Positions 4,054-59,375 of a DNA stretch of 64,000 bases are shown in pieces. Made by a program: the position numbers and the translations under genes. The DNA is from Microthyrium microscopicum. Its lineage: Eukaryota. Position 1 is the stretch's first letter, and every line of letters starts with the position of its first letter. Location of the stretch: positions 778,627 through 842,626 of the forward strand of contig MU004230.1 in NCBI GenBank assembly GCA_010405405.1, given 5' to 3'. The notes beneath the pieces were generated by a model that was not told the DNA's origin, did no database searches, and saw nothing but the letters and a program-made list of their open reading frames with translations.

Positions 4054-6326
4054 TTAGTGGATAGTGGTCTTTTTGGTGGTTTTTGTGATGGTGGTCTTCG
4101 TCATGCCTGACGGCTTTGAGGCCGTGACGACTGTGACCTTGGTCTTGGTAGTGGTCTTCTTGGCCTTCGCTGCGACTCGACTGGCCTTTTGGGCCTCCTT
4201 CCACTTGTCGTCCCACTCTTCCTCGACAGAACGCCAACCTTTCCAGATACCACCCTTTACGGGGGCCTTTTTCTCGGATTTGACCTTCTTGTTGCCTTGA
4301 CTTGAGGGAGCGGGAGACTCACTGTCAAGTCCAGACTCATCGTCGGCTTTGCGCTTGTTGGAGCCCATCACTCGATTGATGAGACGGTGATCCATTATCC
4401 GAATCTCGCTATCATTATCGCCCTCACGTTGAGACTTGGGCCAGATGAATCCATAGAGTTTGCTATGGCGCTCACATCGTGGACATTCAATATGTGGCTC
4501 GTACGCGTTCTCTTGGATGAAATCCCCAGTGCAAGTAACACATTGGAGCTGCTTCGAATGAGGAGTTGCTAGCAAGGCCTTGGATGTGAGATAATCTCCA
4601 GGAACGCGTGCTCGGTGAGGCTGGTCGGCCTCCTGGATAGTGTGACGCTTGTTGCGCCGAGTTTGAGCCTTTACAGGTCGCGCGGACTCTCTCAAAGACT
4701 CGATGCTGCGACGAACTTGCTCCACAATCTCCGGATCATGTTCCATGTCCGAGAGAGACGACAAAGCATCTTCGTCTTCATCAAGTGTTACGGACGTGGT
4801 GACGGCTTGAGTCGTCTCCTCAACAATTTCAGTGGAGGGAACAATTGTCGCATCGCCGTCTTCGTGTGCATTCGGAGTCTCGTTGTCAGTGATCTCTGCG
4901 GCGAGAATGCTGTCCACTGTATTGAGCATGCTTTTCTGCACATGATCATGGTCGTCCGCGATTGAGCTCGCAGGGGTGGACTTGGGGGATAGGGGAGTTT
5001 GTATGGCCTGGAGTGGTCCCGAAGAGGCTGAGTCAGACTCATCAGATTTGTGGTCCAGAAAATCGGCGAGGCGCTGTAATTGCGACTTAGGCTTCGCGAT
5101 GGTTCGAGGAAATTGAGTGACTTCAGGCTTATCAAGCAGGTCCAAGGCTTGTGCAACGCTTCCGAATTCAGACTCTTCTTCCTTGACCAGTTCGGATGAT
5201 GCACCAGTGACAGTATTGAGCTCTGGTACGATACTTGCGCTCTTCGACGGCGTAAGTTTTAGACGTTTCTGCGGTACACTCATGCTTGATGAAATTGTGT
5301 GTTCAATTTTGCGCTTTGGAGAGGCGACCACGAATGCAGGAGTACTGCTTATACTACGATCAACAGAAGTCTTTCGACGCTTCGATGATTGTTCAGCACC
5401 AGGGGTAGCAGTGCCAGACGTACTCTTTCGCTGAGATTGGAATTTTTCAGAGGCTTTTGTAAGCTCGGCAGAAGAGGATTCTCGCGCGTTGGTTGTACCC
5501 TCAGGTGCCCAACCGTTGACCTGCTTCTTTTCGCAAGTTACGCAAAGACATTCGCAATTGTCCTCGCCAAAGTAGTCATCGCTGTACTTAACAGTGATCT
5601 CTTCACCAATTCTAATGGGGCGCTTGGCCACAACGTCCATTCTATGGCTGTCGTTCGAAACAAGCTCCGCATTGGCGTCACAATCGTGATTGGCGAACCG
5701 CGCAGGACCGAGGAAGAGAGACATTGTCTTTTTTCTATTAGAATGGACAATGCTGAAAGAGCGACGCTTCAAGTCCAGCTCTTTCTCCTCTTCAGGCGAC
5801 AGGGTGACCATAGTACCGCATAGATATTTGATCCGCTCCTTGTTCGCAATATTCTTACGCGCAGTGACAGACGCTTCCTTCTCGCAGATGGTATAGCGGT
5901 TGGTGGTTGTGACCTCGAAGGGCGACTCGGGAAGGTATATGCGGACATATTTTTCGAGATGTCGCTGGAAATTGGTGAGGTCGAAGTTGGAGCGCAATCT
6001 GGAAGTATATTTCTTGAATGCCGGGAGGTTTTGCAATTGCTGCATGGTGGCTTTCACATCGCTTCGAATGACAATGTTCTCTTTCAAGATCTTGATGATA
6101 TCGTTTTCTTTGAGTTGGCGTTCGGGCTTGTAGTAGCCATGGTTTTTCCGGATGGTGGTCCAGAAGAAGACCTAGCGCATGGTTAGTGTGATGCTCAAGG
6201 CAGGCGCAAAAGCAGAGATCAACTAACGTGATCCACCAGCGCGTCAGTTATAAAGTCGTCATTTTCCGCAAGCTGCTTGTACCGTAGAGTGGCTTTCTTG
6301 GACAAGGTATCTGGATTTGGTGCCAT
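4054..6326 (-). CDS. set9: Histone H4K20 methyltransferase Set9/KMT5
   Basis: ATG at 6326 (MAPNP...LAENDDFITDALVDH), intron ~6172-6227, then VFFWTTIRK. SET motif FLGPARFANHDCDAN, post-SET YFGEDNCECLCVTCE, C-terminal CPRCERHSKLYGFIWP. Confidence 0.93.
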
Positions 6327-9070: not shown

Positions 9071-9221
9071 TTGAGTCACGTTATGAAATGAAGCACTATT
9101 GCACGACAGAAGATTGATTTGAGGGAAGAATGGTATTGATATTGATTGATGCTATGGATGAATATATGAATGGTAGGCTATGGATGATTGAAGCAATGGA
9201 GATGAATAAATCGATGGCGAA

Positions 9222-9422
9222 GAATGCGTAAAGATGAGGATGAATCCGTAAAAATGAGGTTGAATGCGTAAAGATGAGGATGATTGCGTAAAGATGAGGA
9301 TGAATGCGTAAAGATGAGGATGAATCCGTAAAGATGAGGATGAATGCGTAAAGATGAGGATGAATGCGTAAAGATGAGGATGAATTCCGTAAAGCTGAGG
9401 ATGAATGCGTAAAGATGAGGAT
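9222..9422. repeat. Minisatellite, 10 tandem copies of 20-bp GAATGCGTAAAGATGAGGAT
   Basis: Counted directly. Head-to-tail copies with 0-3 differences each and one 21-nt unit; degenerate GAATGAATCAATGA-type continuation to ~9490. Confidence 0.97.
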
Positions 9423-10399
9423 GAATGAATCAATGAAGAAGAATAAATCAATGAGGATGAATGTGTAATGATGCGGTTGAATGAATCAATGGGGAAGAAT
9501 GTGTAAAAATGCCAGTCCAGCGTCCAGTCCAAGTACCAGTTCCAGGATCCAGACCCAGTATCCAGGTCCAAAAGAGCAGTGCCACGAGCACTTTGGAGAC
9601 ACCACGAGGCCTCTGGCAGACACGAGCTGCGTCCCAAACGAAACCACCAATCCTCCAATCCAAACCTCATCACCCTTCTCGGCCATCGCAGCCATCGGAG
9701 TGGTCGTTGGGTGTCGAGTTCGGCATCGACCACCCAATTTGGGGTCAACCATTGAGCATTCGAACGTTAGCAGGCAACTTAGCAATCAGGAAAAGGGGAG
9801 GGGACTTACCAATCTTGGTGAATGAGCTTCACGGGCTGGGGATCACCGGGATCCAATCGAGGTACCTAAAAGCTAGAGAAGTTTTCACGTGAGCAAATGA
9901 ACAAAAGCACTAAAAACCTACCGTGGGAGGCAAAGTCAGTACCATCCAGACCAGTCAGACCAAGGGGCCGGGACCAGAAGGGACCAGAGACCAGAAACGA
10001 CACTGGCGATGCTGAAGTTGCCAACAAAAGGATACTGAGATAAGAGGATGAGAAAAGCACAACCGAACCAAACGAGTGTCCATGTTGATATCCTGTTTTT
10101 GGTGTGGATGCAGATATCCATCAGGAGGGGGCCACCCATCGCTGACTTCAATCCTCACCACGGTCCTGGAAATCTCGGCCTCCCAACCGAGAAGTTCCAG
10201 AGTTGAAAAAGTTTTGAACCATTTTTTTGGGGATATATGGATGCCTCGACTTATGCGAGGGGGGAATAAGGCGACTTGGGCCGGTAACGGATTAAAGGCG
10301 CGGAATAGGCCATGTCGTAAAGCGTTCCCTGGGTGTGACGGCCCAGGTGTAAGAAAGGGGAAAGTCGAGATGAAGAATGATTCGGTTTGTCGGACCGAA

Positions 10400-11782
10400 T
10401 CAAGGGAGGGGAAAGGCGAGATCCGTGAACGTCGATGCGTCCACTTCCATCCACGGTAGAGCCAGGGAGGGCGGTCTGGGGAAGAGAAAGGGGAAGTCGA
10501 AGGTGGCTATGTGTACCGGACACAAAAGCCGAGAGCCAGGGATGAAGGCCTGGGTTGAGGAAGAGGGAAAGGCGAAGTCCAAGGATTTTCCACGCGTCCG
10601 CTTGAATCCAAGGGTGGGTCCGGAGGGTGTCGGTCCAGATGAGATGAAAAGGAGGGCGAAGTGGCTTCTGTATATCCATAGTGCCAGAACCAGGGGGTGT
10701 CGGCCTGGGTGAGAAGGGTGACTGGAAGAGAGGCGTGCCTACTGAGAGAAAAGCGACCGAAAGGCGCGAGCACTGAGTGCCCAGGCGCTTCGAACGGCGC
10801 TTCCAATCGAGGAACCAATGGATGAGACGAAGCTGGCAACACTCCCGTTGTCGGACTCCCCATAGCTCGATGCTGATGAGGCTGGGCGAGAGTGTTGGCC
10901 GACGAATCGTTCCATTGGCGTGAGGCCGCGAGTGTAGGTGCCATCGTCGAAGGGTTGACAGGCTTCGATGGCAGCGTCGATCCTCGCTTCCAGCTCGGAA
11001 GGGACATCTTCCAAGAAGGTAATCCGGATGGCAAGCAAGGAGTTCAGGTACTGGCGGCAGAAGGCTTCGTCGCCAAGGCGACGACCTTGCCAGAGTCCAG
11101 CTTCGCTCAAGGCTGCTTCCGCATCCGGGATGATCGACCCAAACTCGAAGAAGATCCAATCCAAGTAGACAGACTAGGCCTCTTGGAAGGTATCGTTGAC
11201 AGGACGACGAGTTTCGGTGGGATTCGCAAATCCGACTTGGAATCTGGTGTGGAGTACCATGCCGGTAGCCCAAGTGCCTGAGATCCAGACCCTCAAAGGG
11301 AAATCACGCTCGTCCCAGGTGGCAGCGGAGCTTGGCTGCACAAGCAACCCAACCTCTTCAGATTGGAAGTGTCGCTCGTTGAGAAAGTCCACCTGGCGGG
11401 GAAGACGGAGAGAGCGGGGATCGAGAACCGGGAACTCGGAAGGAAGGCGATGATGAGATGCCACAGGGAGACGTGGTTCGCCATCAAGTTCGGGGCAGAG
11501 GTTGTGTTCCATGGCCGGCATGACATATGAGGGCTGAGATGGAGTGCGATAGTCGAGGTTCATTCGAGAAACATTTGAACCAAGACGACCGGAAGCATGT
11601 TGGGAGAACACAAGGCTTCTGGTAGAGGCGGCAGAGGCGGTAGAGGTGGCGGTGGACATGCGAGACTGATACTTGCTGGTGGCTGGCCGAGCAAGGCTTC
11701 TGCGCATGAGAGAGGAATGTCGTGCAGTGCTGGCCAATGACCTGGCACTTGATGCATACATCGAGGAAAATGATGAAGACAT
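10400..11782 (-). pseudogene. Orphan Ser/Arg/Pro-rich ORF interrupted by in-frame TAGs (gene, edited gene or pseudogene)
   Basis: Pyrimidine-rich leader then gcaATGtct at 11782. ORFs 11174-11782, 10739-11164 and 10400-10582 share one frame, broken only by TAG at 11174-76 and 10739-41. No family recognised. Confidence 0.5.
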
Positions 11783-45666: not shown

Positions 45667-46353
45667 ATGAATCGACTTTTCGGGGCTAAAGATACGAAGG
45701 AGAAACCATCGCTGGACACTGCTTCTACCAAGGTATGACAAATGACATCTTGCAGCGCTTTGACAGCTAACACGTTCAAGCTAAGCGCACAGATCGCCAG
45801 ACTCGATGGAGAAGTCGAAGTGGCCACGCGAGAACTTACTACCATCCTCCTAAAGCTCAAACAAAAAGGACCAAGGGCTCCACCATCTCTCAGAGCTCAA
45901 GCAAAAAAAGCATTGGAAAAGCAAAAGCGGAAACAGGCTATGCGAGACCAGCTAGATGACCAGTTGACCAACTTGCAGCAAGCTGGAATGTTGCAGGACA
46001 ATCTCCGAAATACAGCGATAACCGTAGAGGCCATGAAAACGACTACTAAAGAGCTAAAGAAACAATATGGCAAGATCAACATTGATCAAATCGATAGGCT
46101 ACAAGACGAGATGGCTGATCTCATAGAAATGGGCAACGAGATTCAGGATAGCATCAGCAGATCCTATGACGTCCCGGAAGATATTGACGAGGATGAGCTC
46201 GATGCTGAACTTGAGATGCTGGGAGAAGAGGTGGAGATGGACGCTTTGAATGATGCACAAGGCCTGCCAAGTTTCATGGCTGATGAGGCTAATCTACCTT
46301 CCTTCATTGATAATCCCCCGGAAACATCAAAAGTCAAGGAGGCCGCCGGCTAA
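45667..46353 (+). CDS. VPS60: ESCRT-III Snf7-family protein Vps60/CHMP5
   Basis: MNRLFGAK start; KQYGKINIDQIDRLQDEMADL and ISRSYDVPEDIDEDELDAELE. One intron ~45733-45780 with probable AAG acceptor. Confidence 0.9.
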
Positions 46354-46518
46354 TGGGTTGCTCTTTGATGTCGCGCAGTCGTTTGCTTAAGAGCATATAT
46401 GCTTACGTTTTGTTGTTACCAGCGCTTGAATACGCTACACAACCGTATTCGCAGTTACATCGTCGCTATTGTTTACGCCAGTCATCAGCTAACGCAAGCT
46501 CTATTTCTAATTTAGTTT

Positions 46519-48798
46519 TCATATGATGATTATCTGTTGATGTGGGAGCCCCCAACCTAGATCGTCCTTGCTCAAATCGCAATTCAAGCCTAGGAGAGAT
46601 CCTGAACTCTTGGTGGCTCTCAGGGTCAAGAGGCCAACTCTTCTGAACGTGTTTTCGCTTCTCTCCATGGGGTACAAGAGTAAGCCAATAAATTCAGGCC
46701 CCATACGATCGTGGGACTTGACCGATAGGTCGTTATTTACTTTCCACTGGGCGTCATGGTGAAGCAATGGTAGGACGACAACTTTGGACCGGTATTCGTC
46801 TATCGTCATCCCTCCATCCTCTGTGAAAATGTCAAAGGTGATCGAAGCAACACTACCCGGATCGCTGAACAACAAATCCGATGAGATTTTTGGGAGCGGC
46901 CTTATCATTCCGATGACTTTGACCCAACCGGCGATGATTTCACCCGTGACATCTCTCGACCGCGGTAAAACCACAACTTCTATTATCCGCAGTAGAGGAA
47001 CCGGATCGATGAGCCTTGGATAAATCACTCTTCCCTTGATATTGGCCCACGACTATGATGGAGCTATAATTCGATCAGCAACTCGCCATAGACAATGAAA
47101 CACAGGCTTACCTAGATACGAATCATATTCTTCTGCTGGCTTCCTGTCAGGTTGTTGGTGATGTACTGGAACTCGCCACGCCAGCTCGTTGATCATATCT
47201 TCACGCCATAATCCCGCAACATAGTCGTCGTCCATAACAGTCTGAAACTCCTTGGCTAATCCAGATATGGCAACGAGCTTATCTCTTCCTTTGGTCAACT
47301 TACGGCAACTATAATCATTAACGATACTTCTCCAGATCTTGTACCCAGACTCGGGTTTAGCTTTGATGTCGTCCAACCATGACTTATTCTGAAGTTGGTA
47401 AGGATAGTACATCCCATCACCTGAAGTATCCGTAGTCTCGGTTCCAGCCGGAAAACCTATCGGAAACGATTCGCTCGCCTCCAACTCTTTACATTCCCAG
47501 AACAACTGGGCGCCGAAATGTATAGTTCGAGGACTCAACAATCTCTCTTGACACACCCAGCCTCTTCGGTTCAACGAAGCTTTGATGAGACCTTCGTGTC
47601 GTACGGATGTCTTGAAGCCTACATAGCGCTGCTGGTCCTGTTCTCGGGCAATATCGATTACAAAAGGTGAATTCGCAATAGGCTCGCGATGGCAGAAAAG
47701 ACCTCCAGGTCCGTTAGAAGCTGCCGTAGCGGCGATGTTGTAAAGTGCTTGTTTATAAACCTTGCCCATCAAAGCGGCTTCTTTTGCCCAATCGATCTCA
47801 CAGTCTTGCATGATGCAGAGCGAGTCAATCCAGAGGTATCGGAATCCAAGCTTTCGAGTAACGATGATAGACTCCTGGAACGTCTGCGAAAGGCTGCTCC
47901 AGTCAATTCGGTCTTTCAGATCGTTGAGGTTTTCTTTGAGAAGTCTTAAAGGTATCTTAGAGCCCCTAGAGCGTGGTCAACGACTGACCTGTGGTATTGA
48001 ATGAGCTTACTCACCAAGAGTGACTCAGTGTCACATACTCAATTCGCTGCTGTCGATGCTCCAGCTCTCCTGAGATTACCAATCGAACACAAGGGGCATC
48101 GCTCGCGCCAACGTCAATGAGTCTGGTCGGCAAAGCACCAGAGCGCTCAAGGCCACACTTCTTATGCGTGTTTAGACATCTGGTGGTCCATTCTTTGACA
48201 CATGCCCAAGCTCTGTCAGATGATGTGTTTGCAGACATAGGCTGAATCATATGTGGAAACGTAATTGCTAAATCACATCACGTTCAGCTTGGCAACTATC
48301 TCATTTGAAGCGATATATTGTACCTTTGACTGGAATGAGTGTCCAATCGCCACCCGCTAGATATATCTCACTAAACAACTGCGTACCAGAGTCGAATACC
48401 AAAGTCGTTGAGGTGCTTGATAGAAGGCGCCGGCGCAATTGTTCTCTTGTTAAGTTCTTAAGGTTGGGTGGTGTCTGGTAAGTATTTCGATGAACTGACC
48501 ATAACGTCTCTAAATCGACAGTCGCCCATGTAATTTGGCAAAGTCTACATTGCTGGAGAACGGACCTTGCTAAGTCCACGATATTGTCGATCTCGAGGCG
48601 TTCACTCTTCTCGAACCACCAGTCATTTGGCTGCCAGAAGAAGTTTCGACACGTCGAGCATATGGTTGAAGCTGCTGTCTCATTTTCCGGGGATTCGTTG
48701 TTGTATGACTTGGTCGGACTCTGCAGGTATACTTGAGTCGATTCGTTCAAATTGAGCTCTACAGTTCCATGATCTAATTGTGTATACGCTGGTAGCAT
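46519..48798 (-). pseudogene. HET-domain protein gene carrying one in-frame premature TAG (47053-47055)
   Basis: N-terminal CxxC..CxxC; LPTRLIDV, YVTLSHSWG, RYLWIDSLCIMQD, MGKVY, LNRRGWVCQERLLSPR, DKLVAISGLA and YVAGLW; then YLAPS*SWA and an open C-terminal 170+ codons (FRRVGL). Confidence 0.85.
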
Positions 48799-49711
48799 CT
48801 GGGAGTTCTTAGTACAAGACACACGCTGAAAATAACATATAGTTCAACCTCACCAAGTCTCCAACAACTCTGCTAGTAGCCACAGCACTCTATGGAGACC
48901 ATAAGATGCTGTAACAAGATTCACATTTGGCTTGATAGTTGGTAAAAGTATCTTGTAGAAACGAATACTTACCGCTTTGGTGGATGTATTCCTGAAATTT
49001 ACCCGATATAAATGTCGATATGTCCGTTGGAATGAAGCCAGTTCGCAGCCTTCTTAGAACATACATAACGAGCAAGATAACATACTCCAAGTATGCTATA
49101 ACCCCTGATAGAGGCCGCATATTTCATTCGCTAACGTATCCTGCACAACGAAGCATGAGGCACAGTACTCAAGCCGCCAATCAATTACCTAGCCGCCAGG
49201 ATGTGCATCGCCGCACTGTACACCTTAACAAAACAAATCCATGGAGAGGATATGCAACTGCCAGCAAGTCCTATCCAATAGACAAGCGACTCGTGGCGTT
49301 GAGGGTCTCTCATCGCGCAGTGAGAGTCGGCCGATGGACAAAATAGTAACGAACTCCCATCAGCTTCGCTTGCTCCCACAAACGCTCTTAAACAAAAGGT
49401 GCTATACAACTAAACTTATATCCGATAAAGTAAGCACCTTTGAACGCCCTGTATAGTAATTAAAACACTAGGTACCTAGGCATTGTGCCCGAAGCCGGAG
49501 TCTTGAAATCCTTCATAATACTCGTGGTGTTTTCCGGATATATCTCTTGTTCTACGAGCACTTTATCTAAATCCTTCCGGTTTGTCGAGAACAGCGATAA
49601 TGGTCTTCTTCCAGTGGGAATATACTTGTGACGAAATTTGGGTGAACATACTACCCTTTCCATCTTGTTCCAGATCATTTCGATATTGTGTTTACTAATT
49701 GACCAGGCTAG

Positions 49712-52700
49712 AACTCTGCCACCGCTTCCTTCAATAGTTGTGCAACTCAATATCTTCCTGTCATTCCCTTGACCGTTGTTTGCATTATTTCTGTGCTGGC
49801 AGTAAAGAATGTAATCAGGCGAACTCATGAGGCAACATGCCCGCAGAAGAGGTCTGAACGGAGTCCCGAAGATGTTTTGAGGCTCTACCAATGGCTTACA
49901 TATAGCTGGGTTTGGCCGCTTCTGAGAATTGGGCAAACAAGACAATTGCAGAAGAGCGATCTATGGGATCTACCATATGCTATCCAGACTCGCCACTTAG
50001 CCGAGTCAATCCAAAAAATCCATAGATCAACTACATTCAGAAGAATTCTGAAAGCAAATCTCTCGGATTGTTACATTCTGCTACCGGTTTATATTGGCGC
50101 TTTGGTTTGCGGTATGTATGATCGATATATTGGCCGTGGCTACTTTCTAATGCTGATATCAGAACTTGCTCCACCTGTTCTACTTCGACAGCTTCTTATA
50201 AGCATGGAAGAGCCTGATCGTGGAAATAGCATGCCTGTTTTGTACGCTGTTCTACTCTGCGCGAGTGCATTGGTTTATGCTCAGCTCGTAGTGCTGGAAA
50301 TGTGTTTTGCATGGCGTTGTTATGAACGTGCTCATGGCCAGCTCACGATGCTGATATTTGAAAAGACATTGTCCAAGAAAATGATTATCAAGACTGAGGA
50401 ATCGAGTTCAACAAACCAGCCGTCCCAGCTCCACGGAGGTCAAATTTACAGCTTAAACGCTCACGATGAAAAGAAGCAGGCGAAGGGATCTAAAATCAAA
50501 GGCTTACTCACCAAGAAGCTGCATTTATTGAGGGAGCTTTTTTGGACCTTTAGTCAACCAAATGCACAAGCGGCTGGTTCAGCCTCTGCTGGAAAAATTC
50601 TCAATCTCCTACGGTCTGATACACCTACGGTAGCAGCATCCTTTCGCAGAGGTCGAAGCCTGGTTAGAACACCATTCAAGCCAGTCATCTTAATTTGGTT
50701 AATCTGGAAACTGCTGGGTCCCTCATGCTTCCTCGGGCTTTTCATTGTTGCTGGAGCACAAATAAGTAACATGTTCCTGGCAAAGCTGTTGATTAAATGG
50801 AAACGCAACGAGAAGAAAGCCAAAGATCTACGAATACAGATTTGCTCGCAGTACTTAGATGTGATTCAGCATCTACGTTGGTACGCCTGGCAGGACACTT
50901 GGCTTGGAAAGGTTATGAAGATTCGTCAAGATGAACTTAACGTGCGACTCGTGAGATCCTGCCTCAGCCTCGTATCATCTTTTGTTGCGATCTGTGGTGG
51001 CCAACTCTTTCCGGTTGCTGCCTTCATCTCCTACACCTATCTTTCTGGACAGAAGTTGAGCGTCAGCTTAATTTTCCCTGCTTTACAGCTTTTTGGGCTT
51101 TTGAAAAGGTCACTAGAGAGTATTCCAGCTTGGATTAACAATCTATCGAATGCCTATATTGCAGTAGAAAGAATCGAAAGCTTCATGCAAGAGCCTGATC
51201 TGGAACGATTAGCCCCAATCGAGTCCGAGGTGACCGATCCGGCAACTTTGGCACTAGAGAATTGCGACTTTGCTTGGCCAGGGCAGACCAAGCCAGTATT
51301 GAAAGGAATCAATCTGGTTATTCCTTTTGGCTTGACGATCGTGTACGGGCATATCGGGGCCGGGAAATCCGCGCTACTCAAGGCTCTGGTTGGTGAAATG
51401 GATCAACTAAGTGGTCACTTTAATTCTGCTTATCTTCATCAACCCATTGGCTTCTGCTTTCAAAGTCCTTGGCTACAGAGCATGAGTATACGCGACAATA
51501 TTCTCTTCGGGACACCACTCGATGAAGCGCGATATCAAACGGTAACAAACTCATGTGCACTATTGCCTGACTTTGAAACATTTCCAGATGGTGACTTATC
51601 GTTGATTGGAGAAAAGTAAGTTGTGATCTTCCCCAAGTGGGTCTGTAATTGACGTGAGAGCAGTGGCATTGGACTTTCTGGAGGACAACGAGCAAGAGTT
51701 TCCTTGGCAAGAGCACTGTACAGTCGCTCGAGAATACTACTCTTGGACGACCCAATTTCGGCTTTGGATTACAAGACAGCACGGAAGATAGTTGCAGTTT
51801 GCTTCTCTCCAACAAACGAACTTGCAAAAGGGCGAAAGATCGTATTGGTAACACATCGAATTGACTTAGTTGGGACTTTGGCAGAGCAATTTGTTGAAGT
51901 GAAAGACGGAGTGGTCGAGGTTCAAGGCCAAAGTCCGTTGGATTCTGACTTCGCCCTATCTAGTCAGCAATCTGGGATGAAAGATACAGAACTTCCCAAT
52001 AAGGAGACTGATCATCGGATGAAGCCTACAGAGCAAAGTTCACCAAGAAAGTTCGTTGAAGACGAGAAGAGAAAAACTGAAGGTGTCGAACCGAAGGTTT
52101 TTCTGACCTTTGTATCCGCAGGTCAATTCTGGTGGATTTTCTTGTTAGTCATGCTTGCCATATCCAGAGCTTTTGCAATCGCTGAGCAATGGACGTACAA
52201 GGCTTGGGGCGAAGCTTATGATAAGGACATCGAAATTTCGCAGATCAAAAGGAACCAAGACCATCCAGTATGGCGTCGCTTCTCACCATCGAATGCGATC
52301 GTGTCCTTCCCTTCTCCAAACGAGGATCTTCGACCTTGGATGATTCTCCTTTTGGCGATCAGCATAACCAACTGCATCGCTTTCACAGTCTACAATCTAA
52401 GCCAATTTATCGCCATTTACGCGACTACCAAATTCTACTTTGCAAAGGCTTTGAAGCGTATCACCAATGCCACATTCAGGTTTTACGATACCACTCCATC
52501 CGGCAGATTGCTAAACAGGATAACATCTGATGTTGATGTACTTGATACCGCTCTCAATCACCTAGGTAGTACATTCTACTCCATTGGAATATTCGCTACC
52601 TCGACCGCAGTCATTGCGTCAATCTCTCCCCTCTCTTTCATATCTGCTTTCGCACTAATGGCTCTTTACTTCTTCATATTCCAGCTGTATCTTCCTGCAA

Positions 52701-53879
52701 CTCGAGATCTCTGTCGTCTTGAAGCCGCTTCCCTGAGCCCATTCTACACAATATTCGGCGAACTATTGCAAAATCAAGGCGCTGGTTTGACAACTGTACG
52801 TGCTCTAAATGGCAGGGAAATGTTATATAATCGAATTATCTCCATTGTGGACACATATCGGACCTACGTTCACTTTGACCACGCCCTTCAGCTCTGGCTC
52901 ATGTTGAGATACGACTGTATCTCCGCTATAACAGCATTTCTCCTCACTATTCTTGCGTTAACGACGAATCTTTCGTCAGGAATGACGGCATTCCTTCTCC
53001 TCAACTCCAATTTATTCGTCACCGCAACTCGTTCTCTTTGTACAAGCATGTCGCGTTTGCAGAAAGAGCTTGTGTCGGTCGAAAGGATTGCCGAACTGCT
53101 TGAAACTGAGCAAGAACCCAAGGGAAGTATGAAACCGCCAGCTTCATGGCCGAAATTTGGAAGTGAAATCAGATTGGACAAGGTCACGATTAAATATGCA
53201 GAGGACCTTGAACCAGTTTTGCACAATATTTCTCTGCGGATCCCGGCTGGATGGTATGTCTCGACCAACATACATATTGAAACAGTTTGGAACTAATGTC
53301 TCGGCTAGCATAACGGCCATCATTGGTCGAACAGGAAGCGGGAAATCTACCCTCGCCACGGCTTTGCTCAATATCGTGAAGCCTGAAACAGGTGGTGTGA
53401 TTACAATCGACAATGTTTCTTTAGACGATATTGATGTTACAACCCTTCGACAGAGAGTAACTTATATCCCCCAGGACCCAGTACTTTTTGCTGGAACAAT
53501 AAGGGGAAACCTTGACCCAATCAATGCTTATTCGGATGTCGAGTGCGAAGCCGTATTGGCACGCGTTGTTGCGTGTATTGGTCATTCCATAAACTGGACG
53601 ATAGATTCGACAGTGGAATCTAGGGGCCATAACTTTTCTCAAGGTCAGAGACAGGCCATCAGGATAGCTCGTGCGATCCTTAGGCGGAGTGCGGTTGTGA
53701 TTATGGACGAAGCCATGTCAAGTATCGACGAAGAGACGGCCTCGAAGCTACAGCAGGTAATCAGGGAGCAACTCAGTGGAGCTACGATCGTTATGATAGC
53801 CCATAGAATGAATGCTGAAGGGACATCAGGAGCAGATCATCAGATTTTGCTTGAAGGCGGTAGAGTCATTAACAGTTGA
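49712..53879 (+). CDS. ABCC/MRP-type ABC transporter (true start upstream, unresolved)
   Basis: Lasso-like SPED..WLTYSWVWPLL..DLWDLP. NBD1: GHIGAGKS, LSGGQRARV, ILLLDDP. NBD2: GRTGSGKS, FSQGQRQ, VIMDEA, AHR. Introns ~50112-50162, ~51616-51663, ~53254-53308. Confidence 0.9.
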
Positions 53880-55693: not shown

Positions 55694-57547
55694 TCATGCC
55701 GATGAGAGAACCTCGTCGTCACCAACACATTTGGTATCACAGTTACTAGCAAGAGCGTCACATCCAGGAAGTACGGGCAACTGCTCTTGGTCATCGAAAT
55801 CATCTCCTGAACGAGAATGCTCCCAAAGGGCGATGAAGCCAGTGCCAGTCATTGCCAAAGTGCCATGTGACGTATCCAGACCAAGATGAGCTTCATATCT
55901 GAGATGCTCTGTTTTAGCATTGACAAGTCGATCGGCCCAAGGCGATGGCTGTATGTTAGAAAGTGCAGCTCTCAGCATCGCATCTGCTTTTTCCGCCTCT
56001 GTAGAGGACGAATCTTGCAACTTCCAAGCCAAGGTGATATTGTCAAGAGGAAAGCCGGTATACAGTCCTTCTAGTTCCCCAGAATTTTCGTGGAAGAGGA
56101 GAGCAATATCGGGCCTCATGCACAACAGGCGGAAAACGGGATGTTTAGGCGTCGTTGAGCCTCCAGAGATCGGTCCTTCATGGCGTGTTCTGAGTTTGTA
56201 ACCTGTCGGCAGGTAACGGCGCAACGAATAGCTAATCAAAGGGCCGTAACGAATGTCGTGATACCAGTTCACTTCATTGTATAATAGGCTGATCTGATTT
56301 CTTTCATCTGGGTTGCAAGACAAATGATGTAGATCGGAACTGCTGAGTCTGAGGACCTTGGTCAATACAGAGGCCGCGCTGAATATTGACTGTTCATAAA
56401 TGTCACTGAAATATTGCAATGCAGTCTCGAAAAGCCATTTTTTGTCCTTTTGATAGTCGATAGGAAAAGATAATCCATTGCGCACCAATCCCAGCAGGCC
56501 GTAAAGCCTGTCACGGTCATCTGCACATTTGGCCGATTGGAACTTGATACTGAGCTCCCAGAGAAATCGTTTGTCATTCAACGTTGTGTTGTCAAAATCT
56601 GTGAGCTTCATGGCGTGATGTGTCTTGAGAGTTGTATGCGCTTGAGCCAGCCTCAGTGCAGGACTTGCCGCAAGGGCCTCAATTGTCTTCTTCAGCTGCT
56701 GAATGCTGTCTTCACGATCGTGGTAGGCAATCTGTTCCAACTCGCAATATGCAAAGCAATACAAAATGTCGAAATTCAGCTCAACGTCTCTCAACCAGAT
56801 CAGGGTGCGCTTGGCTAAAAGCACTTCTTGAACGATCCAAAGCCGCTCAAAGTATGGAGCTTGACATAAAAACAGCAGTTGCTTCCAAAAAAGAACATAT
56901 TCCTTATCACCAATGGGCTGATCTAACCACGGCCATCCTCGCTTTTTGTGGTGCCAGTTTCTTGGATCTCTCAAAATCCTCTTATGCGGAAAATTCTGCA
57001 GCTGCTGGTAGGCGTAGGTCTCACGAGACCAGCGATCATCGAGCCATATGATGACTTGCTGCGCATGTAGATAAATTTGATCCATCATGCGCACTTGGCT
57101 GCTTTTCTCACTATCGTCTGACTGATTGATCGAAATGGCATCTATCCAGTAAGATTGAGAAACATCCTTTTTTCGAGCTGTGTCTAGGAATCTCCAGAGA
57201 TTCTTTCGGACCAAGAACTGCTCACCATTGATCTCAATAGGATGATCCGCATTGGCAGTCCCCCAGGTGTATGACAGGGCATTGTATTCGGCATTGGTAT
57301 TGCAATGACTGAGAGTGCATCTGATGCCGTCGTTATCTGCGCCCGGCAGGATTTTCAAAAGCCGGATGGGGTTACTCTCATCTTTGTTGATTGGAGTATA
57401 TGTAAAGGTATCCTGTTGGCAGGGAGCTGCATTGGACGTCTCCTTCCTTCCAGATCGCGGTGCTCTTTTTGAAAGTTTGCTTTGGGGGACCTGAAATGGG
57501 CTGGAAGGTTCGTTCAAACTTCCACGAGCTGTATTATGACTCTCCAT
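55694..57547 (-). CDS. HET-domain protein (HET-6-like)
   Basis: Intronless 617 aa. IRLLKILPG, YNALSYTWG, YWIDAISINQSDDSEKSSQVRMMDQIY, YFERLWIVQEV and CADDRDRLYGLLGL. Confidence 0.92.
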   Translation of the reverse strand: MESHNTARGSLNEPSSPFQVPQSKLSKRAPRSGRKETSNAAPCQQDTFTYTPINKDESNPIRLLKILPGADNDGIRCTLSHCNTNAEYNALSYTWGTANADHPIEINGEQFLVRKNLWRFLDTARKKDVSQSYWIDAISINQSDDSEKSSQVRMMDQIYLHAQQVIIWLDDRWSRETYAYQQLQNFPHKRILRDPRNWHHKKRGWPWLDQPIGDKEYVLFWKQLLFLCQAPYFERLWIVQEVLLAKRTLIWLRDVELNFDILYCFAYCELEQIAYHDREDSIQQLKKTIEALAASPALRLAQAHTTLKTHHAMKLTDFDNTTLNDKRFLWELSIKFQSAKCADDRDRLYGLLGLVRNGLSFPIDYQKDKKWLFETALQYFSDIYEQSIFSAASVLTKVLRLSSSDLHHLSCNPDERNQISLLYNEVNWYHDIRYGPLISYSLRRYLPTGYKLRTRHEGPISGGSTTPKHPVFRLLCMRPDIALLFHENSGELEGLYTGFPLDNITLAWKLQDSSSTEAEKADAMLRAALSNIQPSPWADRLVNAKTEHLRYEAHLGLDTSHGTLAMTGTGFIALWEHSRSGDDFDDQEQLPVLPGCDALASNCDTKCVGDDEVLSSA

Positions 57548-59375
57548 GTCGACCGAGTGCGTTCACTGGTCCGAGGATGGTATTCTAAAATGCAATGAGA
57601 GAGAGATACTGTACATAGCACATCGACAGTGAAGAGGTTAATGTCTCCAACGTTCGAGCTAGAATTATCTAGGAAGCATTACTCGCTTTCAGCCTGCTGC
57701 AAATCCGCCACTTAGAGGCAGACTAGAGATGTGGCGGTCACCCGAAAGAAAGTTCTGAATAGGTCCAGAGGCCAAGTTTTGGTGTTCTGCAAGAACTCAC
57801 CATGGAAAGGTGCGCATTTGCTGGTTCACGCAGGTAGACGTTTGCAATCAGTCAAACCGTGAAAGGTGAAGTCCACCAGACTCGAGATGCGCTTTACCAC
57901 ATCCGGATACGGCATCGGAAATCCACAATCCGCGGCTCTGCGTCAAACGCCACAAAACTGGTCCCGATATCCCCGGGCGGATGGGGTCTGACCTAAACGC
58001 CATTTTGATGTTCACGTGCCGACGAATGTGGAAATACCGCAGATGAAAGCCAACGAATGAGCGAAACGAGATTCGAATGCGCCAACCTGAGAGGACAGAT
58101 TTGAAGAGATCCAAGGCGAGAGGTTGGCGTGGGGTAGCAGATTTTACGATTAGATCAGAGAAAAATACCATTTTCTGAAGATGACAGATGTATATTCGAG
58201 GAATTGGTCCCGAAAGAAAACAATTCGGGTTGTCTGAAGTCGCGTAGACAAGGCTGAGAAAAAGCCACGGAGAAGCTAGAATTTCGCAAGTGGATAGAGT
58301 TCGATGGTTTTGGTAACCAATGAAACTGCCAAAACAGACACGATGGTTTCTCAAAAAATCGAGATTATATGCCATCGATTTTGAATTTTGTACTTTGCTG
58401 CAGTGGGCCATGTCGTGCCATCAGGGTTGAACGGCATGATTGTTCCTTGCTTCAACGTAGTGGCCTCGGTGAGCTCCCTGTGAATGCATAGGGCGGTGAA
58501 CAGGTCGCGCAAAATGTAGTAGCACGATGAGGGGTTCTGATATCTAGAGCTTCCGGGCGATGGCAGGCGATGGCAAGCGATGGCAGTTGAGATGTATGTG
58601 TCCGTCCAGTGGACTGTTGTGGCCTGCAAGCGTGGGCACCAGTCTGGTAGCAGCATAAAGGTCACATTGCCAGGACGAGCCACTGATCAAGGGGAATCCA
58701 AGGTTCAATGCGCCCGGGACGAGAGCCGCGGTATGGAATTGGATACTGGGAGAAGTGTTATTAGTCACTGGGCGTCGTCAATGGATGTGCAATAAGGCGG
58801 TCAGATATTGCGTATCAGAATTGGCCTGGTGGTCGACAAATTTAGTTGTGGCTGTGGTTGTCTTGTGCCGTGCAAGAAGCTAGATACCGGAGTACCTACG
58901 ACAGAGTGAAGTACATAGGGAGTAAGTAAGAACAGAGGGCACACCTTAATGATTGCAATGCTAGGCAGATCATTCTATGTGGACGGAGATGACCATGGTG
59001 GCATTGTGTTTAGCAGAAGGCGAATTGGCAATAACTGTCGCGAGAGTGGTAGTAACTTGATCTCGATAACTGTCAGCCGCGCCTAGTACTCAGTTTCAGT
59101 GCCTGACAGGGTCGCATTGAAATTTGGCAGTACCGAGTAGTACGAAGTAGTATCGTTGTATCAGCAGGCGCAAGCTATGGATCTTCGAAAATGTTATTAC
59201 AGCGACGTTACAATCTGCGATCTGGAAATTAACTACTTGTGCATACTTTGGGTCTATTATTATACTGGCGCGCCTTCTAATAACCGGTTCGTTGTAACTA
59301 TTTTGTAGTATTATATTTGCAGGACTAAAGAAACCATGTGCAGTGCTCTCACTGCTCTGGGAACAAGCTTGAGTG

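Follow-up and report, generated by a model that had tools for sequence, protein, structure and literature searches.

A HET-domain gene that is open from end to end except for a single TAG raises a simple question: is the stop corrected in the message, or has the gene been broken by mutation? The locus lies on the minus strand of a 64-kb window (the whole stretch of DNA analysed, 64,000 nucleotides). The initial annotation had proposed A-to-I correction of this stop, while giving no lower odds to a nonsense allele of recent origin and pointing to a mutational context typical of RIP.

Gene model and the TAG in public sequencing runs

Positions 46519-48798 (minus strand) hold a four-exon HET-domain gene. 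It spans 708 codons, is interrupted by a single internal stop and is free of frameshifts, as established by direct reading and by script. Its parts, together with the intron just upstream of the start codon, are as follows.

48853-48799, minus strand: 5'-UTR intron, 55 nt, ending right before the ATG; a contig of sequencing run X5 joins 48798 to 48854
48798-48324, minus strand: exon 1, start codon at 48798; Cys-rich N-terminal region with no Pfam family
48323-48268, minus strand: intron 1, 56 nt
48267-48015, minus strand: exon 2, carrying an N-terminal block (PTRLIDVG..) homologous in relatives
48014-47966, minus strand: intron 2, 49 nt; its excision restores the conserved YVTLSHSWG block (aligned with P0004 and P0005)
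47965-47112, minus strand: exon 3, HET core up to the Tyr-Leu preceding the APSWSW motif
47111-47064, minus strand: intron 3, 48 nt, GTAAGC..CTGAT (branch-like)..ATAG, phase 1, stop-free
47063-46519, minus strand: exon 4, TAG at 47055-47053, then 177 open codons to 46522 and a TGA at 46521-46519
47052-46522, minus strand: the 177 codons past the TAG, a predicted C-terminal domain rich in beta strands, named HAD-like after the domain described in PMC10890737

Introns 1 to 3 all run GT..AG, and retention of intron 2 leads immediately to TGG TGA. An in-frame stop lies 5' of the ATG (48892-48890, minus strand). The HET family of Pfam (PF06985) matches residues 17-140 of P0001 with an E-value of 3.5e-24 and 86.2 bits, against a gathering cut-off of 22.5. 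The closest database protein, P0002, is 99% identical, is listed by its source as a HET-domain-containing protein from the Dothideomycete Microthyrium microscopicum, and shares its first residues with the start of exon 1. This public model of 505 residues terminates at the very same TAG; some of its splice sites must be wrong, since the conserved block YVTLSHSWG is missing from it.

The TAG is codon 531, with its A at 47054, and takes the place of the first Trp of the APSWSW motif; the spliced frame around it reads Y L A P S stop S W A N I. The initial annotation had described the GTAAGC..ATAG intron, the A-P-S-stop-S-W-A reading behind it and about 177 open codons running on to 46519 with no other lesion, and our direct reading and script agree with it on each of these points. 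Its remaining structural claim, that APSWSWA is conserved C-terminal to HET domains, holds as well: in a MAFFT alignment with the window's protein the stop column is W in 91/91 full-length homologs, across which A-P-S/T-W-S-W-A is near-invariant, and in alignment A2 (71 rows) A301, P302, W304, S305 and W306 are invariant. A feature that had gone unremarked is that intron 3 is stop-free and has a length divisible by three, which keeps the TAG in frame in the spliced and the retained form alike.

Contigs from four public runs (X1, X3, X5 and X6) were aligned over 46300-49000; the public runs retrieved with the gene included no sexual-stage RNA. None of the four differs from the window by a single letter, and the TAG is present in all four. 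X1 and X3, possibly the data from which the assembly was built, do not count as independent, and X6 (share 0.28) contributes four short, window-identical contigs of depth 2-3 that are not countable as an independent isolate. X5 comes from another sample and another study; it is RNA-like (its RNA nature being a guess), and the material was probably vegetative. The TAG seen in the initial annotation thus recurs in contigs of a sample other than the assembly's likely own. An assembly error behind it is very unlikely: that the true codon is TGG and the TAG a sequencing or assembly artefact has a probability close to nil, the contigs of four runs, X5 among them, being identical to the window at the site.

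X5 also bears on transcription. The segment skipped by its contig between 48798 and 48854 has the ends CT..AC on the plus strand, that is, GT..AG on the minus strand, and this joint suggests that X5 holds spliced RNA. Its contigs break off at 48324 and 48269, the two borders of intron 1, which is left uncovered. The X5 contig that spans the TAG (46300-48269) keeps introns 2 and 3 and continues into the neighbouring Snf7-family gene; it may represent unspliced or antisense RNA, or DNA carry-over. At 47054 this contig reads A, in an unspliced form and from probably vegetative material; contigs drop rare variants, and this one is little guide to mature mRNA and none to fruiting bodies.

The codon in relatives and the tract behind it

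A scan of metagenome contigs yielded 80 HET loci, in 72 of which the codon corresponding to the window's stop is readable. It encodes Trp in 71 of the 72. A strict motif search covered 58 loci, all with TGG; a looser motif retrieved TGG in L020, L041, L042, L058, L077, L069 and L080, and alignment or translation gave Trp in L007, L026, L076, L023, L037 and L039. Eight loci (L005, L030, L035, L048, L052, L056, L060 and L063), at contig ends or with no motif found, were left unjudged. The sole other TAG is that of L051, which carries nine in-frame stops (eight TAG, one TAA) in a frame that is otherwise kept and looks, from its sequence, like a RIP-type wreck. The nearest relative for which DNA is available, L001 (53% identity to exon 3 across 234 residues), has an intron at the same place and TGG at the codon, and is itself frameshifted. 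A conserved TAG, which the initial annotation had suggested looking for in other isolates and sister species, was not seen in these relatives: Trp prevails in all readable metagenome loci except the nine-stop L051.

In many of the nearest database proteins the homologous part breaks off at YR(G/C) and unrelated residues follow, which suggested a stop conserved across a sub-branch. We rejected this idea: such ends are compatible with open frames that read on into the intron shared by these genes, and the existence of near relatives of full length with the intact motif speaks against it too. The open frames of relatives that end just past the matching YR(G/C) fit, at the level of sequence, a shared position of intron 3. 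Searching with one such truncated model, P0048 of Fusarium oxysporum, returned 81 new proteins, of which 36 hold the motif and 45 end earlier. Close full-length relatives of P0048 with an intact motif include P0046 (71% identity), P0123, P0137, P0141 (a protein of Tothia fuscella), P0144, P0145 and P0164. The tails of P0008, P0015, P0127 and P0130 resemble a shifted-frame reading of the motif, which cannot distinguish TAG from TGG.

How often are HET genes interrupted in this manner? In a lesion survey by tblastn of the 80 loci, each with its best full-length query, in-frame stops within well-aligned conserved blocks were found in nine (L005, L025, L038, L041, L051, L062, L069, L070 and L080). 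L021 was doubtful in this survey, and L001 showed its frameshifts. Stops replace Trp in L025, in L069, twice in L080 and three times in L051. In L069, otherwise an open gene, a lone TGA replaces the second Trp of APSWSW, and L080 also has a stop at that second Trp; across the survey, stops elsewhere were equally frequent. In L038 a TGA stands in place of the CGA of L028, L029 and L031, which are near-identical to it; on this sequence comparison it is a nonsense allele still segregating. Since a single transition turns a Trp codon into either of two stop codons, no special explanation is required when a HET gene has a stop in place of a Trp. Our literature search for HET pseudogenisation found no relevant report.

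The tract behind the TAG shows little sign of age. Among 5000 dinucleotide-preserving shuffles of its 531 nt, only 3 were free of stops, and the remaining two frames contain 15 and 6 stops. Among family pairs that are about equally similar in their HET parts, C-terminal identity divided by N-terminal identity comes to 0.513 for the window's protein, against 0.506 for the others (rank 45 of 92); divergence past the TAG is thus not elevated. Relaxed constraint downstream of the stop, which the initial annotation had considered, is accordingly not visible in this measure, the C-terminal part being no more diverged than in intact relatives.

Exon 3, intron 3 and exon 4 were modelled with AlphaFold2, with Trp at the TAG and 70 homologs as alignment. 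The model has a mean pLDDT of 82.6 and a pTM of 0.85, and two stretches fall below a pLDDT of 50, one of which (282-297) coincides with the 16 residues coded by intron 3 (285-300 of P0001). The HET core and the C-terminal domain are predicted to form one compact body, as the pTM indicates, and residues 326-480 contain seven confident strands. A beta-rich "HET-associated domain" is described for Podospora BH in the available text of PMC10890737, and the modelled seven-strand part fits such a domain. In the model, the TAG is a cut at the entrance of this folded domain that also takes out the invariant motif. Solved structures gave no sequence match, and Foldseek found none to the model at E <= 0.001; with the C-terminal 177 residues as query, no match was obtained among proteins of 97-310 residues. 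The kinship of HET to TIR is taken from the literature alone.

Origin and fate of the stop codon

We conclude that the TAG most likely marks a young nonsense allele created by an ordinary loss-of-function mutation. The gene is one member of the large, fast-turnover HET family of filamentous ascomycetes, encoding HET, a TIR-related cell-death/allorecognition domain, followed by a beta-rich associated domain. A single G-to-A transition in this lineage would have changed the invariant TGG (Trp) to TAG. The message would still be produced, with translation stopping at codon 531, and the product would keep the N-terminal region and the HET core while losing the 177-residue C-terminal domain. Without the invariant motif this product is probably inactive, and we infer both a loss of function and an absence of rescue by editing or readthrough. 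By indirect measures the mutation would be young: the gene has no other lesion, and the tract past the stop is not over-diverged relative to intact relatives. The outcome would be a null allele, or a gene on its way to becoming a pseudogene, and no recoding would be involved. Of the options put forward in the initial annotation, it is thus the recent nonsense allele that gains support: the TAG is private, the rest of the gene is undecayed, and single nonsense codons are frequent in HET relatives.

How the transition arose is a separate matter. The window contains the following neighbours.

45739-46353, plus strand: Snf7-family gene
SAPS gene, also a neighbour
49712-53879, plus strand: ABC transporter
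55697-57562, minus strand: second HET gene, of a different type

The change from TGG to TAG is a TpG to TpA change; read on the opposite strand it is CpA to TpA, the context that RIP favours. RIP acting on a duplicated HET gene could thus have made the stop, a rival explanation for the origin of the mutation only, and the nine stops of L051 show what a RIP-like wreck of a HET gene looks like. We nevertheless hold this origin to be highly improbable here. There is a single lesion, and the gene's indices (TpA/ApT 0.68, (CpA+TpG)/(ApC+GpT) 1.18) resemble the background of the whole window (0.68 and 1.31) and lie far from the usual RIP thresholds. No duplicate of the gene exists within the 64-kb window, the second HET gene there differing in architecture. 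In the RIP suggestion of the initial annotation, the dinucleotide context was right; the indices at background level and the lack of a duplicate within the window count against the remainder.

The truncated protein itself might be what selection maintains. A 530-residue HET-core product could be functional (for example constitutive or dominant-negative), possibly with rare readthrough, and the public annotation P0002 does already end at the TAG. The locus lies on RNA-like contigs, and NLR-type het genes have HET without the associated beta domain, according to the available text of PMC10890737. We regard this alternative as unlikely. The stop removes an invariant motif together with a confidently predicted folded domain, and 177 intact codons would be unexpected had the tail long been dispensable. 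Readthrough fares no better: the context is UAG-UCG-UGG and not the leaky UAG-CAR-YYA type, near-cognate decoding of UAG gives Gln, Tyr or Lys and would not yield Trp, and the stop is not conserved.

The editing proposal requires some background. According to the available text of PMC10776026, PMC11156358 and PMC11087585, A-to-I mRNA editing at the sexual stage is known from Sordariomycetes and Pyronema, and none was found in Aspergillus nidulans cleistothecia or Botrytis apothecia. Its preferred sites have U at -1 and lie in hairpin loops; in Fusarium graminearum about 71 genes have a premature UAG that it corrects, as far as the accessible parts of these sources describe it. A second system consists of the OLD deaminases (OTT_1508-like), which correct UAG in the adjacent zao gene upon virus infection (Honda et al. 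2025, as described in the commentary PMC12754623); this type of stop correction is reported there beyond Sordariomycetes, in Eurotiomycetes and one Basidiomycete, and the OTT_1508-like family is said to be ancestral in fungi (PMC3239186, available portion). The literature, in its accessible parts, places the sexual-stage machinery in Sordariomycetes and Pezizomycetes, and a Dothideomycete host does lie outside the known editing lineages, a circumstance the initial annotation had raised.

Under restorative editing the UAG would become UIG, which is decoded as Trp, in some specific state of the fungus, and the full-length cell-death protein would be made only then, either through a Tad2-Tad3-Ame1-like activity during ascoma development or through an OLD-type (OTT_1508-like) deaminase. 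Several properties of the locus are in keeping with this. The UAG stands at an invariant Trp within an otherwise intact 708-codon frame, TAG is the codon most often corrected by fungal editing, the tract past the stop is open and not over-diverged, and the gene lies on RNA-like contigs. The base at -1 is U, and the predicted local fold, CCAU[CAUAGUC]GUGG, places the A in a 7-nt loop (-4.8 kcal/mol), which fits the preference of both fungal systems as given in the available text of PMC11156358 and PMC12754623. Holding back a harmful protein behind a stop that editing can remove is, moreover, the logic described, in those parts of the literature, for zao and for the stop-corrected genes of Fusarium. 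The hairpin, however, is a by-product of the motif's own codons: its stem is made of the Pro codon and the second Trp codon, and the same base falls in a predicted hairpin loop in 36/61 motif instances of relatives. The motif codons alone thus form the hairpin, and the fit to the substrate is no evidence of adaptation.

The edited base appears in none of the four runs, and the only RNA-like contig over the site, unspliced and probably vegetative, reads A. The stop is not conserved, 71/72 relatives having Trp, and the Ame1-Tad3 interaction is reported, in the accessible literature, to have originated in Sordariomycetes. A Pfam scan of the 141 stop-to-stop frames of at least 100 codons in the 64-kb window, in which frames split by introns into shorter pieces could escape, detected no deaminase domain. 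Tables S1-S6 of PMC10776026, which cover the 71 stop-corrected genes of Fusarium graminearum, contain none of the terms "HET", "heterokaryon" and "incompatibility", and in our search of the literature for A-to-I editing together with HET or heterokaryon incompatibility, no HET gene was reported as edited. We therefore give restorative editing little chance, and the editing suggestion of the initial annotation gains no positive evidence: the stop is unconserved, the RNA-like contig has A, and the U at -1 and the loop are inherent to the codon and the motif.

It is equally improbable, in our judgement, that a TIR-like cell-death protein of a Dothideomycete is held harmless by a UAG and becomes full-length only once a deaminase edits the message. 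The deaminase of such a gated HET protein would be of the sexual-stage Tad2/3 type or of the stress- or virus-induced OLD type, encoded elsewhere in the genome, and as part of that reading it carries the same slim probability. The hairpin formed by the motif codons would make the site a ready substrate, and this could explain the stops at motif Trp codons in L069 and L080.

Comparison with known systems

What would each reading mean? If the stop were edited, restorative A-to-I mRNA editing would extend to a fungal class without prior report, and editing would be linked to the HET/TIR-like cell-death machinery, with an immune-type effector gated at the RNA level. The tendency of APSWSW codons to fold the Trp codon into a hairpin loop may make HET codons worth inspecting in species that edit. 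Taken as a nonsense allele, the reading we prefer, the gene is one more broken member of a family with rapid gain and loss, and matters little.

Among characterised proteins, the closest in kind are those that combine HET with a beta domain (for example Bh/Pa_3_2660 of Podospora anserina, and tol, het-6 and pin-c of Neurospora). The window's gene has in common with this class the PF06985 match, the blocks YxTLSHxWG, YLWIDSLCI, NRRGWVxQERLLSPR and FWEC, and APSWSW followed by a beta-rich domain, here a predicted one. Unlike them, it has a nonsense codon at the invariant Trp and a Cys-rich N-terminal extension of ~230 residues that belongs to no Pfam family. Most HET genes are not het loci, according to the available text of PMC10890737.

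Premature-stop-corrected (PSC) genes such as PUK1, AMD1 and FgAMA1, known from Fusarium graminearum and Neurospora, likewise have a single UAG in place of an ancestral sense codon, and share with the window's gene an otherwise intact frame, U at -1 and a loop position. They differ in that no editing was observed here, the host is a Dothideomycete, the stop is unconserved in relatives, and the published Fusarium list, as searched, includes no HET gene. In the OLD-ZAO antiviral module of Neurospora crassa (PMC12754623, available portion), too, a harmful defence-type protein stands behind a UAG that a deaminase can correct. Its target, as that portion describes it, is a zinc-finger transcription factor adjoining its deaminase gene, whereas here the interrupted protein is a HET protein and the 141 scanned frames of the 64-kb window yielded no deaminase domain.

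Ordinary HET nonsense alleles and pseudogenes carry a lesion of this very type, a Trp codon hit by one transition, as in L025, L069 and L080, with the segregating L038 beside them. It is with these that the window's gene is to be classed: it does not differ from them.

N-terminal region and transcript of the main HET gene

Two features lie at the 5' side of the main HET gene, the HET-domain gene that carries one in-frame TAG:

48324-48798 and 48015-48267, minus strand: N-terminal region, ~240 residues (sequence reading and Pfam scan)
48799-48853, minus strand: 5'-UTR intron, 55 nt (joint in an X5 contig)

The Pfam scan of the N-terminal region matched no family. Its Cys-rich stretches (C..C .. 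C.IC) are common to the homologous proteins P0008 and P0017, and because they are shared the region may, judging from sequence, form a zinc-binding module. The deposited protein model, P0002, lacks the conserved YVTLSHSWG block as well as ten residues of exon 1, and two of its splice sites therefore look wrong.

Contigs of X5, an RNA-like public run from another sample and study, bear on the transcript. The joint in one of them places the last base of the 5'-UTR intron directly against the start codon. The contig covering 46300-48269 still holds introns 2 and 3 and extends past the gene into a convergent Snf7-family gene; it may derive from RNA that had not been spliced, from readthrough on the antisense side or from carried-over DNA.

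Neighboring features of the window

A second HET-domain gene and a repeat were found in the window:

55697-57562, minus strand: second HET-domain gene (Pfam HET, E 9.3e-27)
9159-9500: tandem array of ~15 copies of a 20-nt unit (GATGAGGATGAATGCGTAAA-like)

The second gene consists of one open frame, 622 codons long, and is located 7 kb upstream of where the main gene starts. Its architecture differs from that of the main gene, and the APSWSW motif is absent from it. Further long open frames with one TAG each occur at 10507-11176 (minus strand) and 5821-5823 (plus strand), in a stretch richer in G+C; these are probably overlapping frames or introns belonging to a single gene that matches no Pfam family.

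Stop codons in related HET loci

In-frame stops also occur among HET loci from metagenome contigs, three of which are listed here:

L069, 1289-1303: one TGA, replacing the second Trp of APSWSW
L051, 2357-3731: in-frame stops at nine codons, eight of them TAG and one TAA
L038, 3490-3492: TGA, the codon being CGA in L028, L029 and L031

In L069 the frame is otherwise open and reaches a typical C-terminus. L038 and the three loci with CGA are near-identical, the TGA being present in one of the four: a nonsense allele of a HET gene that is segregating. Among the stops of L051 are ones at both Trp codons of the motif, with no frameshift in the gene, which is a wreck of the RIP-like kind.
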